Of a stretch of 4,692 bases of DNA, positions 1 to 4,692 are shown piece by piece. Below the pieces are notes generated by a model, which did no database searches, was not told the DNA's origin, and saw only the letters and a list, made by a program, of their open reading frames with translations. Each line of letters begins with the position of its first letter. The first letter of the stretch is position 1. Both the position numbers and the translations under genes were made by a program. Source of the DNA: a virus (taxonomy: Duplodnaviria; Heunggongvirae; Uroviricota; Caudoviricetes); IMG/VR virus record IMGVR_UViG_2778261344_000007, positions 1 to 4,692 of that record. One strand, 5' to 3'.

Positions 1-53
1 CTTGCCCACTCGTTATATTTTTCCGCATTAATGGCTTTCTGTGTATTTAACAT
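1..53 (-). CDS. hypothetical protein, 5' end only (17 codons; gene runs off the window start)
   Basis: Minus-strand ATG at 51-53 preceded by GGAGG (plus 61-65, read as CCTCC) with a 7-nt spacer. Frame stays open to position 1 (MLNTQKAINAEKYNEWA...). Too short to name. Confidence 0.4.
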   Translation of the reverse strand, partial: MLNTQKAINAEKYNEWA

Positions 54-158
54 AAATATACCTCCAGTTAAGGATTAAATTTTATTTACAGTGCTGAACT
101 TAATTATTCAGATTTGGATTATGCTTTCTCTTCACGAAGTTCCGATTGTTAATTTGGC

Positions 159-581
159 TCACAACAGCACCTTCTGAAAATTACCCTGATAGAAAGCCAG
201 TACACGCTGCATAGCTTCGCTCTTCCGGCACTCGCTACAGATTATGTTCAGACGCCTGTCGTAGCGGCGTATTTCTCCGTCTGGTAATGACCAGATAAGA
301 TCCGGATCAACCACAACCGGTTTCTTCACCTTTGCCCTTGATAGTTTTTTGCGGGCGTTTTGCCAGTCTTTACGCGCCTGCTCAGACGGGAATAATCCGT
401 AGCCTGAATTGTAAACATCACCACTGGCGACCAGTTCTCTGGCGAGAGTGCTTATGTAATACCTTGATGCACCGGTTTTAGCCTCCAGAGCCCGTAACGT
501 CTCGCGACCGCTCAGACGTACAAGTTCAACAACCTGCCCTTTAATTTTTTCCCGCTCTTCTGGTGTAAATACTTTTGCCAT
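159..581 (-). CDS. Ren-like protein, 140 aa (N-terminal winged-helix-like region, C-terminal ECRKSEAMQRVLAFY motif)
   Basis: ORF-track frame 159..596; start placed at ATG 579-581 because GGAGG lies 5 nt upstream (plus 587-591). The C-terminus ...CSECRKSEAMQRVLAFYQG resembles my recollection of the phage lambda Ren C-terminus (...KECRQSAAMKRVLAVYG). Position distal to the replication genes matches lambda ren. Recollection not verified by search. Confidence 0.7.
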   Translation of the reverse strand: MAKVFTPEEREKIKGQVVELVRLSGRETLRALEAKTGASRYYISTLARELVASGDVYNSGYGLFPSEQARKDWQNARKKLSRAKVKKPVVVDPDLIWSLPDGEIRRYDRRLNIICSECRKSEAMQRVLAFYQGNFQKVLL

Positions 582-596
582 AGGTGCCTCCGGCAA

Positions 597-1358
597 TCAC
601 TTTTCCGACACAATACGACTGGAGGAATCGAAAATCTGTCGAACAATATCCCGGTGCTTGTTCAGCTCCCGCAGCGCGGCGCAGACTCGCTCCCACTTCT
701 GGACATGATTTTTCGCCCGACGCAGTTCGCGGTTTGCCATATGCAGCGATGGTAAAACCAGGTCATCCGCTCGCGTTTCAGTAAACGATGGCAGCGACTG
801 CACAATGTCCGCCACCGTTTCTGTTTTAATATCTTCCTGTGTTGCAGCCTCCTGTACTGGTAACGCAACACCTGTGGGCTGAGGAAAGGCCTTACCATCA
901 GTTTCCGCTACCGATGCTGCTTTCGGCTCTGCTGGTAAATTATCGCCCGGTATGCAGTAACGAAATTTACCGTTCTGGTTTACGCGAATCAGGCGTCCTT
1001 TGCTGATAGCCATTGCCAGCGTTGAAGCTACTTTGCGTGATGTGGTACCGAACAATGTAGCCAACTCATCCGCCGTTTGTGGGCCACGTTGTTCAATCGT
1101 CGCGGTTAAATCGCACTCTGAGATTTTCGCTACTGTTGCCATGGTGGTTTCTTCCGGCAGCTCTGCCGGCGCTGGCTGTTCCTGCTGAACGTTGTTATCA
1201 GCCACGCGCCAGGTGTATACGCTTTTATCAACGAAGCCAGCCTTTTTCAGTTCCCACAGCTCGTTCAGCACTTCTTCTCGACTGATATCAAGTCGCGTAG
1301 CCAGTTCTACCGACGTGGCTTTTCCCATCGCTTTCAGTGCGTCAAAAACGGTCTCCAT
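597..1358 (-). CDS. prophage protein with two winged-helix-like domains, an acidic/Pro-rich linker and a basic helical C-terminus (DUF1627-like), 253 aa
   Basis: ORF-track frame 597..1409; start placed at ATG 1356-1358 (METVFDALK...) because GGGAGG lies 8 nt upstream (plus 1367-1372), whereas the longer start at 1409 has no RBS and would overlap ydaV by 29 nt. Two HTH-like segments are readable ([30 protein letters not shown] and [32 protein letters not shown]). Family assignment is from memory. Confidence 0.75.
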
Positions 1359-1380
1359 TAAAATTTCCTCCCGGTAAAAA

Positions 1381-2127
1381 TTACTTCTCAATACCTGGCT
1401 GACCAACATTCGGGCGCCAGCTCTCCCAGTTAAAATTCACCCAGCGCCCGCCGTTCATGGTCATGCGATCCATAATCCGCTCGCCGAGCAATGTTTTCAT
1501 GGCCTCATAGTTCAGGTTTGTCAGCATCCCCACGCTGCGCATTGACGCTGTCCGGCGATCAACAATCTGGTGCAGTACCACCTGCTCGTTTTTCGTCTCG
1601 CGCTGAATACCAATTTCATCAAGAACCAGCAGATCAACTTCGCACAGTTCCCGCAAAAATTTTTCGCCTGACTGCCCGTCGTCATAGCTGGCGTGCAGGG
1701 CGCTCATAACATCAGCCACGGTAACCACAATCACTGTCTGGCCATCTTTCAGCAGGCGATTCCCGATAGCCGCCGCCAGATGGTTTTTTCCGGTACCAGG
1801 TTTTCCGCTGAACGCGAAATTTGTGCATCCGGTAACCAGTTCGTCAGCGATAGATTTCGCCTGACTCAACGCGTATCGCTGGCCGTCGTTCTGCACCTGG
1901 TAATTCGCAAACGAGCATTTGCGGTGCAACGGCTGTATGCCGGAGCGATTCAGGATTTTTTCCACCCGCAACTGACGATTCTGACGGTTGATCTCCTCAC
2001 AACGTTTCTGGCCTTCTGCAAGTTGCCACTCGCGCCACTCCGCCACCGTCCTGAATGGCGCGGTTACATGTGGCGGGGCCAGTCTGCGGATACGTTCCAG
2101 AACGCCGCCTGTCGCAATATTTTTCAT
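1381..2127 (-). CDS. ydaV: DnaC/IstB-like AAA+ ATPase, putative replicative helicase loader (lambda P analogue by position)
   Basis: 248-aa ORF with Walker [12 protein letters not shown] and Walker [10 protein letters not shown] readable in translation. ATG 2125-2127 with AGGGGG upstream; starts 6 nt after the ydaU stop. Length and context match Rac prophage YdaV as I recall it. Confidence 0.88.
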
Positions 2128-2133
2128 GGTCTG

Positions 2134-2922
2134 TTACCCCCTGAAGCCTGGCGGGATCGCACTGTCCGGAAACGAGACGGTGTTAATCTGTCGGAGCAAC
2201 GTCTCTGGCCGAACACCTTTCGGCGCGAACAAGCCCTGGTATTCATTGGCGATGCTGTGTCGAATCACCTGCTCAGGTGAAAAACCCTGCTGGCGGAATT
2301 TTTCCAGCTCCCGTATCGCCCCGTTAGCGCCCTGCTCCGTTCGAATCGGTTTTCGCAATGCCTGCCTGAACTGAACCCACTCATGCCAGAGTGTTTCCGG
2401 CAACCAGTCAGGCAGCTCGATAGCCTCCGGTTCGAATTTTTTAGACGCTCGTTTTTGGCGAGGGGGATTTAGGGGGAGATAAGTATTTATATCTTCCTCT
2501 TTCTCTTCCTCTGGTAACGCTTTTTGATCCGTTTTTGTAACGCTGGCAGCGTTACCTTTTCGTTTCAGTTCTCGTATTTTTGTTACTCTCTCGTTTGTAA
2601 CCGCCCGTTTTTTAGAGCTTTTCCCGTTATGGCGCTCAAAGTTAGGAAGCGACAACACACCATTAGTTTCGACCAGCCATCCAACCTGAATTAACGCATC
2701 AGCAAAACCAGCCATAAAAGTGATGCGATCTATTGCACTTTTTGTAACGCCGCGAGCGTTACACTCTGCGTTACCGTCTATCATTTGTTGATCCGCCCAT
2801 GCCCAGAAGCGAATGACTTTCCCTAATGCGGCATCTGGATCAATATTCAGAATCTCAGCAAGCCTGAATATTTCCGGCTTATCCGGCGTAATAACTTCGA
2901 GCTTTATCCAGTTTGAAGCCAT
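2134..2922 (-). CDS. ydaU: putative replication initiation protein, YdaU family (lambda O analogue by position)
   Basis: 262-aa ORF, ATG 2920-2922 with AGGTGA about 7 nt upstream. Two-domain layout with a charged low-complexity linker (KSSKKRAVTNERVTKIRELKRKG...EEEKEED) whose coding DNA carries the palindrome/T-tract cluster. Lies directly upstream of the DnaC-like gene. Symbol assigned by synteny and length class, not by search. Confidence 0.8.
   Translation of the reverse strand: MASNWIKLEVITPDKPEIFRLAEILNIDPDAALGKVIRFWAWADQQMIDGNAECNARGVTKSAIDRITFMAGFADALIQVGWLVETNGVLSLPNFERHNGKSSKKRAVTNERVTKIRELKRKGNAASVTKTDQKALPEEEKEEDINTYLPLNPPRQKRASKKFEPEAIELPDWLPETLWHEWVQFRQALRKPIRTEQGANGAIRELEKFRQQGFSPEQVIRHSIANEYQGLFAPKGVRPETLLRQINTVSFPDSAIPPGFRG
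2514..2622. other. candidate replication origin: cluster of GTAAC/GTTAC half-sites with T-tracts inside the ydaU linker-coding DNA
   Basis: GTAAC at 2514, 2537 and 2597, GTTAC at 2551 and 2582; T4-T6 runs at 2521, 2532, 2557, 2577, 2608 and 2619. Just upstream lie GGGGGATTTAGGGGGAG (2462-2478) and an AT-rich/polypyrimidine stretch (2479-2510). Confidence 0.35.
2536..2556. repeat. palindrome copy 1: TGTAACGC-TGGCA-GCGTTAC (inside ydaU, codons 123-130 GNAASVTK)
   Basis: Arms of 8 bp read directly; the reverse complement matches. Confidence 0.85.
2743..2763. repeat. palindrome copy 2: TGTAACGC-CGCGA-GCGTTACA (inside ydaU, codons 54-61 CNARGVTK)
   Basis: Perfect 8-bp arms, 5-bp centre, read directly. 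Confidence 0.85.
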
Positions 2923-2934
2923 TTGTTTTCACCT

Positions 2935-2955
2935 TGTAACGCTCGCAGCGTTACA
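2935..2955. repeat. palindrome copy 3: TGTAACGC-TCGCA-GCGTTACA (non-coding, ends 2 nt before the ydaU Shine-Dalgarno)
   Basis: Perfect 8-bp arms read directly; located in the 77-bp ydaT-ydaU spacer. Confidence 0.85.
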
Positions 2956-2964
2956 TTTAACTGA

Positions 2965-2986
2965 TACCGAACAAAACAGTTCGGTA
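2965..2986 (-). other. hairpin TACCGAAC-AAAACA-GTTCGGTA in the ydaT-ydaU spacer (8-bp stem, 6-nt loop, no U-tract)
   Basis: Perfect 8-bp inverted repeat read directly; lies between the ydaT stop (3000) and palindrome copy 3. Confidence 0.4.
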
Positions 2987-2999
2987 CGATTAATTTCAA

Positions 3000-3422
3000 T
3001 CAATGCACTACGACAGAATCGCTAGGAGAACCGCCGCCGCTGAAATGTGCTTTACGGTAAACGGCCTGGACTGCATCATCATGCGCATCAATTGCCGTAC
3101 TCAGTGCATCCTGTGCCGCCAGTAATGCACGGCGTTCCAGGGTATCGAAGATGCAGAGTCGGTGACGCAGCTCGCGAGGAAGAATTGCCAGAACCGCAGG
3201 GATCAGTTTCTGAATTTTTTCCCTTTGCGCATTCGTTTCACCTTTCAACCAACGATGATAGATATTCTGCTGATTGTTCCAGTCCTTGCCTGGTACCAGG
3301 GGCAATTCGCCGCCCCCCTGGCGCAGATATTCTTCAGTAATTGCGTTAGCGACCCACGCCTGCCCTTTTTCGGCTGCCAGGGCTAACAACACTGATTCGA
3401 TGTGCTCATGCTTGATTTTCAT
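3000..3422 (-). CDS. ydaT: YdaT-family protein (CII-like regulator of Rac-type prophages; historically annotated as a toxin)
   Basis: 140-aa ORF beginning MKIKHEHIESV..., which I recognise from memory as YdaT of the E. coli Rac prophage (unverified). ATG 3420-3422 overlaps the ydaS TGA 3419-3421 (ATGA coupling); GGGAG lies 7-8 nt upstream. Confidence 0.88.
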   Translation of the reverse strand: MKIKHEHIESVLLALAAEKGQAWVANAITEEYLRQGGGELPLVPGKDWNNQQNIYHRWLKGETNAQREKIQKLIPAVLAILPRELRHRLCIFDTLERRALLAAQDALSTAIDAHDDAVQAVYRKAHFSGGGSPSDSVVVH

Positions 3423-3429
3423 GAATCAA
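3412..3429. promoter_or_regulatory. perfect inverted repeat TTGATT-N6-AATCAA centred on the ydaS stop / ydaT start overlap
   Basis: TTGATT 3412-3417, ttcatg 3418-3423, AATCAA 3424-3429, read directly. A weaker relative (ACGATT-N6-AATCAA, 2986-3003) overlaps the ydaT stop. Confidence 0.4.
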
Positions 3430-3673
3430 CTCCCATCAGCTTTTTCGTAGTAGTTTTATTTCTGCCAATAGTTAAAATTGCATCGGCAGAAAATAATCCG
3501 TTTGATGCATGAGCGATTTTTTCAGCGTAATTTGTTTCGCCGGTATATTCTGTGCGAGGCAATTTACCGTTATCCATCCATTTGTAGATTGCTCTTTGGC
3601 TGACACCACAAACGTCGGCCACAACAGAAACGCGAACAGTTTTGATTACATCTTCAAGTGTTTTCTGGTTCAT
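3419..3673 (-). CDS. ydaS: Cro-like small HTH regulator (YdaS-like), 84 aa
   Basis: ORF-track frame 3419..3745; start placed at ATG 3671-3673 (MNQKTLEDV...) because GAGGGTGA lies 5 nt upstream, whereas the ATG at 3745 has no RBS and sits inside the repressor promoter. HTH-like segment VADVCGVSQRAIYKWMDNGKLP. First gene of the operon, divergent from the repressor. Symbol by synteny. Confidence 0.75.
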   Translation of the reverse strand: MNQKTLEDVIKTVRVSVVADVCGVSQRAIYKWMDNGKLPRTEYTGETNYAEKIAHASNGLFSADAILTIGRNKTTTKKLMGVDS

Positions 3674-3697
3674 ATCACCCTCACAATGTGAACTTTG

Positions 3698-3732
3698 AGT
3701 ACATGCTATAACAGAACTGACAGTACATTCAA
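3698..3732 (-). promoter_or_regulatory. candidate early-right promoter (PR-like) for the ydaS operon: -35 TTGAAT (plus 3727-3732), 16-bp spacer, extended -10 TGtTATAGC (plus 3705-3713)
   Basis: Read on the minus strand; would give a leader of about 25 nt containing the ydaS RBS. The -10 is imperfect (ends in C). Confidence 0.4.
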
Positions 3733-3753
3733 GAGCGAATATCATTGAACTTA
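3717..3753 (+). promoter_or_regulatory. candidate repressor-maintenance promoter (PRM-like): -35 CTGACA 3717-3722, 17-bp spacer, -10 TATCAT 3740-3745; predicted start at or beside the racR ATG (leaderless mRNA)
   Basis: Hexamers and spacing read directly; the -10 ends 7 nt before the ATG at 3753 and no RBS is present. Lambda cI mRNA from PRM is leaderless (established), which gives a precedent. Confidence 0.45.
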
Positions 3754-4172
3754 TGGTTCATGAAGATAAAGCGCGTAAAGAGTTCGCCAGTAGGCTTGCG
3801 CTAGCCTGTGAAAACGCTGGTTATGAACAACATGGAAGGCAGGCAGAAATTGCCCGTCGAATGAAATTAACACCAAAAGCGGTTAGCAAATGGTTTAATG
3901 GTGAAACAATTCCTCGCCGAGAGAAATTAAGGGAATTAGCAACACTCATTGGAACAACACCAACCTATCTTTTGGGAGAGGATACAGAAGAAAGTGGACA
4001 GATACGTTTCTATCAGGAGTTAAATCCAAGACAAAAAATCATCATTGACCTTCTGGACGAGCTCCCTGACAGTGAGACAGATGAACTTTTAAAAACTCTT
4101 GAGGAGAAAAAACAGAAGTACAATGCAATTTACGAAGAGTTAGCACGAAAGAAAAAACAAAAAGCCTCTTAA
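3753..4172 (+). CDS. racR: CI-like prophage repressor, XRE-family HTH with a charged helical C-terminus (RacR-like), 139 aa
   Basis: ORF with HTH segment QAEIARRMKLTPKAVSKWFNGETIPRREKLRELATLIG, divergent from the cro-like gene. No Shine-Dalgarno precedes the ATG at 3753, but a good -10 ends 7 nt upstream. Symbol is positional (racR-ydaS-ydaT-ydaU-ydaV order). My memory of K-12 RacR length differs, so this may be a variant repressor. Confidence 0.8.
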   Translation: MVHEDKARKEFASRLALACENAGYEQHGRQAEIARRMKLTPKAVSKWFNGETIPRREKLRELATLIGTTPTYLLGEDTEESGQIRFYQELNPRQKIIIDLLDELPDSETDELLKTLEEKKQKYNAIYEELARKKKQKAS

Positions 4173-4182
4173 ACCAGCATAA

Positions 4183-4220
4183 ATCCGGTAGCGTCCCCCT
4201 CCGGGTTTGTGCTTCACTTT
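4183..4220 (+). terminator. weak candidate terminator after racR: stem ATCCGG / CCGGGT (4183-4188 and 4201-4206, one G-U pair), 12-nt loop, then T-rich TTGTGCTTCACTTT
   Basis: Hairpin begins 11 nt after the racR stop. The stem is short, the loop long and the T-run interrupted, so this is weak. Confidence 0.25.
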
Positions 4221-4247
4221 ATCCCGTCTCATTTTTTTATACATAAA

Positions 4248-4291
4248 ATGTACTTAAAGTACTTTACAATGATGAACACAAAGTACATTAT
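4248..4291 (+). promoter_or_regulatory. operator/promoter cluster downstream of the repressor (OL/PL-like): inverted site 4248-4262 containing palindrome GTACTTAAAGTAC, direct site GAACACAAAGTACAT 4274-4288, candidate -35 TTTACA 4263-4268 and -10 CATTAT 4286-4291
   Basis: Motif copies read directly. Hexamers are moderate matches with a 17-bp spacer, oriented toward the small ORFs at 4464 onward. Confidence 0.4.
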
Positions 4292-4463
4292 ATACCTACC
4301 AACCCACCCCGCCCCACAGAACGCCGGGCAATACTTCGAGTTACCAGGCAGTGGTCAGGGGTTAAGTAGCCAGCCCGAGGCGTATGAACATGACGGCGGG
4401 ATTCAAATTTTGCAGTGCAGCAGTTAGTTCCGCCACCCGGCGTTAAGGGGAAATGAGGTCAAC

Positions 4464-4616
4464 ATGGATACTATCGATCTTGGCAACAACGAATCTCTGG
4501 TATGTGGCGTGTTTCCCAATCAGGACGGCACATTCACCGCCATGACGTATACCAAAAGCAAATCGTTTAAAACCGAAGCTGGCGCGCATCGCTGGTTAGC
4601 AAGAAACTCCGACTAA
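4464..4616 (+). CDS. small early-left protein, 50 aa (MDTIDLGNNESLVCGVFPNQDGTFTAMTYTKSKSFKTEAGAHRWLARNSD)
   Basis: ATG 4464-4466 with GAGG (4455-4458) 5 nt upstream; below the ORF-track size cutoff. Position corresponds to the small ydaG/ydaF genes next to racR in Rac, but I cannot say which. Confidence 0.6.
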   Translation: MDTIDLGNNESLVCGVFPNQDGTFTAMTYTKSKSFKTEAGAHRWLARNSD

Positions 4617-4627
4617 TGAGGTTGACG

Positions 4628-4692
4628 ATGGAATTTAAAGATTTACCTCCTTCAATCCAGGAGATTGCAGCACACACACTTCGTCATCGTCT
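4628..4692 (+). CDS. small protein, N-terminal 21 codons (MEFKDLPPSIQEIAAHTLRHR...), continues past the window end
   Basis: ATG 4628-4630 with GAGG (4618-4621) 6 nt upstream, starting 11 nt after the previous stop; frame open to the window end. Confidence 0.5.
   Translation, partial: MEFKDLPPSIQEIAAHTLRHR

Follow-up and report, generated by a model that had tools for sequence, protein, structure and literature searches.

YdaW, a modular winged-helix protein encoded behind lambdoid replication genes, as a possible Ren-class accessory adaptor

In lambdoid phages, the nin region opens, right behind the helicase-loader gene, with a slot occupied by early-operon accessory genes such as ren of phage lambda and its DUF977 relatives. 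The ren phenotype, protection from Rex exclusion, is established genetics and about 45 years old. Lambda Ren is reported to interact with the Rex proteins in a two-hybrid assay, and the same report describes it as “likely involved in DNA replication” (bioRxiv 10.1101/2021.04.19.439022). In the Rac prophage of Escherichia coli K-12, the place after ydaV is held by ydaW, whose product is listed as an uncharacterised MarR-type transcription factor in surveys of E. coli transcription factors (PMC4797297; PMC9308461). In an overexpression screen this K-12 gene came up as one of several prophage genes blocking RcaT, the toxin of retron-Sen2, and it is listed there beside racC as a Rac-prophage blocker; RacC was then followed up mechanistically and ydaW was not (bioRxiv 10.1101/2020.06.22.160242). 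Here we analyse a DNA window of 4,692 nucleotides (positions 1 to 4,692 of the Caudoviricetes record IMGVR_UViG_2778261344_000007 in IMG/VR), with a focus on the gene at positions 597-1358 of its minus strand. Judged by its sequence, this gene is the intact form of Rac-prophage ydaW, a member of the DUF1627 family.

The window is a Rac-type lambdoid early region that encodes, in this order, a cI/RacR-like repressor, a cro-like protein, a YdaT/cII-like protein, the YdaU/O-like initiator, the YdaV/DnaC-like loader, YdaW and a DUF977 protein. It is 97% identical to phage vB_EcoS-666R9; the annotation of this phage and that of phage Rac name the gene ydaW and label the following gene “LygF”. The gene is thus already catalogued and annotated, and it is a very common DUF gene, present in about half of the complete E. 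coli genomes and in up to nine copies in Shiga toxin-producing E. coli (STEC) strains; it would be expressed together with the replication genes of Stx-type and Rac-type prophages. The additions of the present analysis are a sharper anatomy and a link to both the truncated K-12 gene and its match in the anti-retron screen. Taken together, the modular anatomy, the independence from the type of helicase loader, the tie between the second winged helix and Ren, and the anti-retron lead yield a concrete counter-defence hypothesis. If true, such a role would account for a gene that is very common in prophages, and perhaps for the old ren phenotype as well.

Identity and modular anatomy of the intact protein

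The open reading frame runs on the minus strand from an ATG (1358-1356) to a TGA stop (599-597) and comprises 253 codons; its translation ends in the basic helix that had been quoted in an earlier reading of the bare sequence (hereafter the original prediction). Residues 88-242 match the Pfam family DUF1627 (PF07789) with an E-value of 4.4e-101 and 335.6 bits against a cut-off of 28.1, and all model positions (1-155 of 155) are aligned, so that the gathering threshold is passed over the whole model. This model spans the second winged helix, the linker that follows and the tail, while the first winged helix, which is the most conserved module, falls outside it. The protein is covered over its full length (positions 1-249 of 253, E 4e-130) by phrog_630, a PHROGs family with no function label. 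The search of NCBIfam gave no match above cut-off, and PADLOC gave no significant match to a defence system. The protein is 100% identical to WP_000450712.1 (NZ_AP018802), annotated as “DUF1627 domain-containing protein”, from the bovine STEC strain E2863, in which the prophage is integrated next to ttcA/intR, the Rac site.

Some phage records annotate a longer in-frame reading frame that starts at the ATG at 1409 and overlaps the ydaV stop (813 nucleotides, 270 amino acids; 3545-4357 in locus L002). The diverged homologues all begin at the methionine of the METV sequence, so that the 253-residue call is correct, and both RefSeq and the family alignment back the 762-nucleotide frame.

An AlphaFold2 (AF2) model was built on an alignment of 48 sequences with 20-96% identity, in which the 47 homologues align end to end with YdaW, the two winged helices (wH1 and wH2), the linker and the IPxFT motif with its basic helix all being collinear. 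The model contains two winged helices at residues 4-52 and 81-135, with a predicted local distance difference test (pLDDT) score of about 90, and C-terminal helices at residues 205-234 and 236-252, with scores above 90; the segments 56-75 and 142-180 are predicted to be disordered, with scores below 50. The predicted template modelling (pTM) score of 0.29 indicates that the domains have no fixed arrangement relative to each other. The gene and its modules are located as follows.

597..1358, minus strand: coding sequence of the DUF1627 protein (intact YdaW), 253 amino acids plus stop codon (597-599); called from the open reading frame, PF07789, phrog_630, the identity to WP_000450712.1 and the ratio of nonsynonymous to synonymous substitution rates (dN/dS)
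1194..1358, minus strand: wH1, residues 1-55, N-terminal winged helix, acidic, the most conserved module; pLDDT about 90, fold H-H-H-E-E
1125..1193, minus strand: linker 1, residues 56-78, variable and disordered; pLDDT below 50 (56-75), 11-42 amino acids long in the family
948..1124, minus strand: wH2, residues 79-137, basic second winged helix, related to the winged helix-turn-helix (wHTH) of Ren/DUF977; pLDDT about 88-90, family net charge +3.8
765..947, minus strand: linker 2, residues 138-198, acidic, disordered and rich in Pro, Glu, Ala and Thr; pLDDT below 50 (142-180)
600..764, minus strand: tail, residues 199-253, “IPxFT...P” motif followed by a basic heptad-repeat helix, the family signature; pLDDT above 90, family net charge +5.7

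The charges of the domains are consistent over the 48 sequences. Throughout the family wH1 is always 55 amino acids long, with a mean net charge of -2.2 (-1.4 for its recognition helix) and with L34 and W50 invariant; its N-terminal 50 residues obtained only sub-threshold matches to winged helices of the HTH_20, TrmB and ArsR types. Linker 2 varies from 34 to 82 amino acids, carries a net charge of -6.0 and is composed of 14% A, 12% P, 11% E and 9% T. Hydrophobic residues of the tail recur with a period of 3.5 residues (power 35, against 4.3 at a period of 3.6 and a shuffle mean of 8, p about 0.01), and the near-invariant hydrophobic positions (208, 212, 219, 222, 225, 229, 232, 239 and 242) have an a/d-like spacing. 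Going by these heptad statistics, the tail is probably a helix for coiled-coil dimerisation or oligomerisation. The original prediction had proposed DUF1627 membership, two wHTH-like domains, a linker rich in Pro, Glu and Ala and a basic helical tail; the profile search bears out the first of these claims, and the AF2 model, the 48-sequence alignment and the tail periodicity agree with the others.

The family is modular. Its members include proteins of 117-167 amino acids with wH1 and the tail only, one protein with wH2 and the tail, and proteins of 308-311 amino acids with three winged helices and the tail; the element constant in all short and long variants is the acidic linker followed by the tail with its IPxFT motif and basic heptad helix. 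Two database proteins, P0127 and P0137, have a YdaU-like N-terminus fused directly to the C-terminal part of DUF1627; these look like in-frame deletion chimeras of decaying prophages and not like a genuine architecture. Pairwise comparison of 49 distinct alleles gave a dN/dS of 0.15 overall, with 0.06 for wH1, 0.10 for wH2, 0.2-0.3 for the linkers and 0.23 for the tail, which indicates a real protein-coding gene under purifying selection, with wH1 as its most constrained part.

The assignment of a function from structure failed, since Foldseek searches of the PDB and BFVD gave generic tandem winged helices only. The PDB matches were to ScpB, ESCRT-II, SelB, TFIIIC and MarR-type winged helices, with template modelling (TM) scores of about 0.2, and those in BFVD were uncharacterised tandem-wHTH phage proteins, together with Zalpha proteins and a weak RepA-like match. 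The top PDB matches, ScpB, ESCRT-II and SelB, use their tandem winged helices largely for binding protein or RNA and not for operator recognition. They differ from YdaW in that their two domains pack, whereas those of YdaW are split by the disordered linker, and the resemblance amounts to TM scores of 0.2-0.3 and identities of 12-20%. For ScpB, a Foldseek E-value of 3e-4 was obtained, but the superposition has a TM score of 0.20-0.31 and a root-mean-square deviation of 10-15 Å, the domains being unpacked in the model. With MarR/ArsR-type factors YdaW has in common a compact wHTH fold and weak profile and Foldseek matches to MarR, ArsR, TrmB and FeoC; it differs from them by scores below the family cut-offs, the lack of a MarR dimerisation scaffold, tandem domains on flexible linkers and an acidic recognition helix in wH1.

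Distribution, genomic context and the tie to Ren

A match to the gene is found in 2,781 of 5,426 complete E. coli genomes, at 6,121 places in all and with up to 9 per genome, and near full-length copies are present in 1,326 of these genomes. An exhaustive HMMER scan of 1.84 billion representative proteins yielded only 177 clusters (at 50% identity, E <= 1e-3). The genome loci recovered with an 11-sequence alignment all belong to Enterobacterales (Escherichia, Citrobacter, Serratia, Salmonella, Enterobacter and Raoultella), and the phage collection holds the gene in only 24 records. The family is therefore taxonomically narrow yet very abundant in E. coli. Many lambdoid phages, lambda included, are without a DUF1627 gene. 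In K-12 only the first 450 nucleotides remain (codons 1-150, encoding wH1 and wH2; 4001-4453 of locus L004, E. coli K-12 GM4792, NZ_CP011343), where the Rac deletion fuses ydaW to a lysis gene in the lysis region. The K-12 protein thus consists of the first 150 residues of YdaW joined to unrelated sequence, and published data on K-12 “YdaW” concern a fragment that lacks the tail, whereas the window encodes the intact protein.

All the loci placed in context (13 of 13 genome loci, 80 of 80 viral loci and 6 of 6 loci of distant homologues) are phage or conjugative-element DNA. At 93 loci the gene upstream of DUF1627 encodes a DnaC-like loader (71), a lambda-P-like loader (12), a DnaB-type helicase (2), a short Ren-like wHTH protein (3), an Lpa-like protein (2) or an HTH_36 initiator (1), with no open reading frame called at the remaining 2. 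DnaC-like, lambda-P-like and DnaB-type modules are all followed by alleles with 95-98% identity in each domain, which means that YdaW does not co-vary with the replication module. A pairing of wH1 with a cognate helicase loader was considered and rejected on the same ground, as one allele accompanies all three types. Some distant members keep the place behind the replication genes in further lambdoid prophages. P0241 (about 20% identity) does not follow replication genes; it overlaps the end of the gene for a 722-residue RecE-like exonuclease VIII in a P2-like (Cox/Ash) element (2843-5768 of locus L102). P0262, a full-length homologue with about 25% identity (3377-4165 of locus L104), lies downstream of a D12-class (Dam-type) methyltransferase gene in a conjugative element with a type IV secretion system (TraF, DotD, TraI, T2SSE), a mobile-element context that is not phage.

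The second winged helix links YdaW to Ren. In a profile-profile alignment with hhalign, residues 82-141 match the winged helix of Ren/DUF977 with a probability of 91.5% and an E-value of 8.4e-7; the match to phrog_142 (“Ren-like exclusion protein”) is limited to residues 85-133 (49 residues, E 5.5e-4). The hhalign match covers the wHTH alone, and neither search gave a full-length match of the DUF1627 protein to the Ren family. In both families a C-terminal helix comes after the wHTH, but the motif E-C-R...(M)xRVLAxY, invariant in the Ren/DUF977 alignment, is absent from the DUF1627 tail, and an equivalence of this tail with the C-terminal motif of Ren was rejected by hhalign, the tails being unrelated. 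With a shared wH2 but unrelated tails, YdaW has a domain in common with the Ren family and is no Ren orthologue. Three things set it apart from Ren/DUF977: an additional wH1 at the N-terminus, the long linker, which is acidic and disordered, and a tail of another kind, basic and with heptad repeats. The best solved relative of the Ren/DUF977 profile is the Zbeta/Zalpha region of ADAR1 (E 4e-6).

The neighbour downstream of ydaW had been called Ren-like in the original prediction, and the name is defensible: the protein belongs to DUF977 in Pfam, but it matches phrog_142 at 1.5e-45, as authentic lambda Ren does at 1.6e-41. In BLASTP the similarity to lambda Ren is confined to the C-terminal 20 amino acids (60% identity, E 9e-7), and the invariant E-C-R motif after the wHTH is common to lambda Ren (2281-2571 of locus L001), to DUF977/“LygF” proteins and to short Ren-like proteins of Citrobacter and Raoultella prophages. 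A homologue search for DUF977 returned close relatives only. The idea that the two genes form a cassette holds in part. DUF977 follows DUF1627 at 74 of about 86 loci, which are mostly close relatives, and among about 14 divergent lineages a Ren-family gene is adjacent in about 5, sometimes upstream; an obligatory pair is therefore rejected for the divergent lineages. In divergent prophages the gene directly upstream can encode a short Ren-like wHTH protein of phrog_142 or phrog_1687 (L010, 5662-5991; L011, 5663-5992; L017, 5506-5799), so that the two families neighbour each other in either order.

Both junctions of ydaW are tight. On the coding strand, the upstream junction has the sequence TAA(1383-1381)-tttttaccGGGAGGaaatttta-ATG, with a spacer of 22 nucleotides after the stop of the DnaC-like gene, and the downstream junction is TGA-ttgccGGAGGcacct-ATG(581-579), with a spacer of 15 nucleotides. 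Each spacer contains a Shine-Dalgarno sequence, read directly.

1367..1372, minus strand: Shine-Dalgarno sequence GGGAGG of the DUF1627 gene, within the 22-nucleotide spacer
587..591, minus strand: Shine-Dalgarno sequence GGAGG of the Ren-like gene, within the 15-nucleotide spacer

A consensus scan found no minus-strand terminator or promoter between the O-like, DnaC-like, ydaW and downstream genes, the number of sites in the window being no higher than in shuffled sequence, and a comparison with Rfam gave no RNA family in the whole window. From the tight junctions, the ribosome-binding sites and the absence of terminators, we infer that YdaW is transcribed and translated within the early rightward operon (cro-like, YdaT/cII-like, YdaU/O-like, YdaV/DnaC-like, YdaW, Ren-like). 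These observations are in line with what the original prediction had said of the two spacers with their strong ribosome-binding sites, of expression together with the early replication genes and of an accessory slot behind the P-like gene, which corresponds to the ren/nin position after the helicase-loader gene. It had also described the protein as uncharacterised, and indeed no well-characterised family claims it and its homologues all lie in phage or other mobile-element DNA.

Possible roles of YdaW

Our preferred, though tentative, reading is that YdaW may be a dimeric, non-essential early accessory adaptor of the Ren class that interferes with a host or defence function. The protein would act as “beads on a string”: its acidic disordered linker tethers one to three winged-helix modules to the tail helix, an arrangement shown across the family, and the basic heptad-repeat helix would form a coiled-coil dimer or oligomer. 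The basic, Ren-type wH2 and the basic tail would be the likeliest contacts with nucleic acid, whereas wH1, being acidic and the most constrained module, would more likely bind protein, its target being some conserved protein of the host or of a defence system. Early phage development or replication could in this way be protected through interference with a function of the host or of a resident prophage, for instance an abortive-infection toxin. A role as a core replication or transcription factor is less likely, since near-identical alleles lie behind different replication modules, lambda has no such gene and K-12 has lost it after codon 150. The connection with Ren stems from the common slot, the homology of wH2 with the Ren/DUF977 wHTH and the frequent adjacency of Ren-family genes on either side, and the counter-defence lead comes from the listing among RcaT blockers and from the distant homologue beside a Dam-type methyltransferase in a conjugative element.

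Several points weigh against this adaptor role. The RcaT result is a screen-level match obtained with a truncated, chimeric K-12 open reading frame and had no follow-up, and the unrelated DNA-binding regulators mhpR and dicC also scored in the same screen (bioRxiv 10.1101/2020.06.22.160242), so the effect of ydaW may be indirect. RacC, for its part, has no sequence relationship to YdaW. The PADLOC search, as stated above, gave nothing significant for the DUF1627 protein, and fold and sequence searches return generic winged helices only. Both the coiled-coil dimerisation and the binding of protein by wH1 we infer from sequence statistics and not from a model of a complex. The two-hybrid work on Rex itself suggests that Ren may be a replication function (bioRxiv 10.1101/2021.04.19.439022). 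The literature on DUF1627, YdaW, LygF/DUF977 and Ren yielded no functional study of the full-length protein, and no functional paper was found among those that name the DUF1627 family.

It is doubtful, though a serious competitor to the adaptor role, that YdaW is a sequence-specific DNA-binding transcription regulator (a “MarR-family Y-TF”) whose tail dimer binds a phage or host operator and tunes early or late phage genes or host genes. The two winged helices, the basic wH2 and tail, a dimerising helix suited to palindromic operators, the weak matches of wH2 to DNA-binding wHTH proteins such as AspA and ArsR, and the listing in the transcription factor surveys (PMC4797297; PMC9308461) would all fit this proposal. 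However, no helix-turn-helix family reaches the Pfam or NCBIfam cut-off (the best, HTH_20, scores 25.1 bits against 27, and the NCBIfam matches all lie far below theirs) and neither collection gives a MarR match; the “recognition” helix of the most conserved module is acidic; neither a promoter nor an operator belongs to the gene itself, and no repeated site was found next to it; and one to three winged helices on disordered linkers of 34-82 amino acids to a dimer helix are unlike known operator-binding repressors. In nearly all lambdoid contexts the gene directly follows the replication genes and is tightly coupled to them. This position would suit an accessory factor of the phage O/P-type replication module that modulates origin firing or helicase loading or couples replication to host factors; such a role would also account for the translation of YdaW together with the helicase loader. 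We regard this as unlikely. Tandem winged helices do occur in replication initiators, a RepA-like protein is a weak BFVD match, and lambda ren, in the same slot, has been described as “likely involved in DNA replication” (bioRxiv 10.1101/2021.04.19.439022), but the presence of near-identical alleles with three unrelated helicase-delivery systems and with different initiators argues against co-evolution with a replication partner. Moreover, one distant member is found behind the RecE-like gene of a P2-like element and another within a conjugative element, and lambda and many other lambdoid phages replicate without a DUF1627 gene.

Two further explanations are effectively excluded. That wH2, and with it the Ren wHTH, is a Zalpha-type domain binding Z-DNA or Z-RNA is barely conceivable, although ADAR1 Zalpha/Zbeta, ZBP1, PKZ and ORF112 are among the best solved-structure sequence matches of the DUF1627 profile as well as of the Ren/DUF977 profile, and Zalpha proteins appear among the BFVD fold matches. 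In the PDB sequence-profile search, wH2 obtained marginal matches to the Zalpha/Zbeta domains of ADAR1, ZBP1 and PKZ as well as to AspA and ArsR (E 6e-4 to 2e-2). The Zalpha reading was rejected by a residue test: N173 and Y177 of ADAR1 correspond to A111 and A115, and neither P192 nor P193 is conserved. Of the Zalpha contacts N173, Y177, P192, P193 and W195, only the core aromatic is kept (Y134, W in relatives), and the best score of the family is obtained with 2l54, a sequence with Ala at the positions of both N173 and Y177. As aligned, wH2 is a compact Zalpha-like fold that lacks the residues for contact with Z-DNA. It is likewise very improbable that YdaW is a functionless remnant of decaying prophages. 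The truncation in K-12 and the many fragments among the database clusters point in this direction, but dN/dS is low in the whole gene (0.15) and in wH1 above all (0.06), the architecture is kept down to 20-25% identity, and full-length copies occur in 1,326 complete genomes and in inducible phages.

A bolder form of the adaptor proposal, improbable in our judgement, would unite DUF1627, Ren and DUF977 in a superfamily of modular winged-helix counter-defence adaptors placed directly behind lambdoid replication genes. The coiled-coil tail would dimerise, the basic Ren-type wHTH would anchor the protein on nucleic acid such as retron msDNA or phage DNA under replication, and the acidic wH1 would sequester abortive-infection effectors such as RcaT or Rex; an arms race with the defences of the host would then account for the differing numbers of wHTH beads.

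Neighbouring genes and other features of the window

The genes that flank ydaW and the repressor gene are located as follows.

1381..2127, minus strand: upstream neighbour YdaV, DnaC-like helicase loader, 248 amino acids (NCBIfam PRK12377, E 3e-153; phrog_50; IstB_IS21)
159..581, minus strand: downstream neighbour, DUF977/“LygF”/Ren-like protein (phrog_142), 140 amino acids (PF06163, E 5e-28; phrog_142, E 1.5e-45)
3753-4172, plus strand: cI/RacR-like repressor

A copy of positions 643-3430 of the window, at 89% identity and with a DUF1627 protein that is 70% identical, is found in the record of “Actinobacillus phage vB_Apl-pPE4” (PP818812.1); contamination or a misattributed host might explain this unexpected assignment.

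The gene in the cII position (3000-3422, minus strand) matches at once the Pfam family “YdaT_toxin” and the PHROG “CII-like transcriptional activator”, which means that the “toxin” label of YdaT-family proteins sits on a regulator in the cII position.

A palindrome of 20-21 bp, TGTAACGC-N5-GCGTTACA, is present in three copies about 200 bp apart (2536-2555, 2743-2763 and 2935-2955), of which two fall within the gene for the YdaU/O-like initiator and the third lies a little upstream of the start of that gene. By analogy with ori-lambda, which sits inside gene O, these are candidate iterons or origin sites, or else candidate binding sites for the initiator or as operators.

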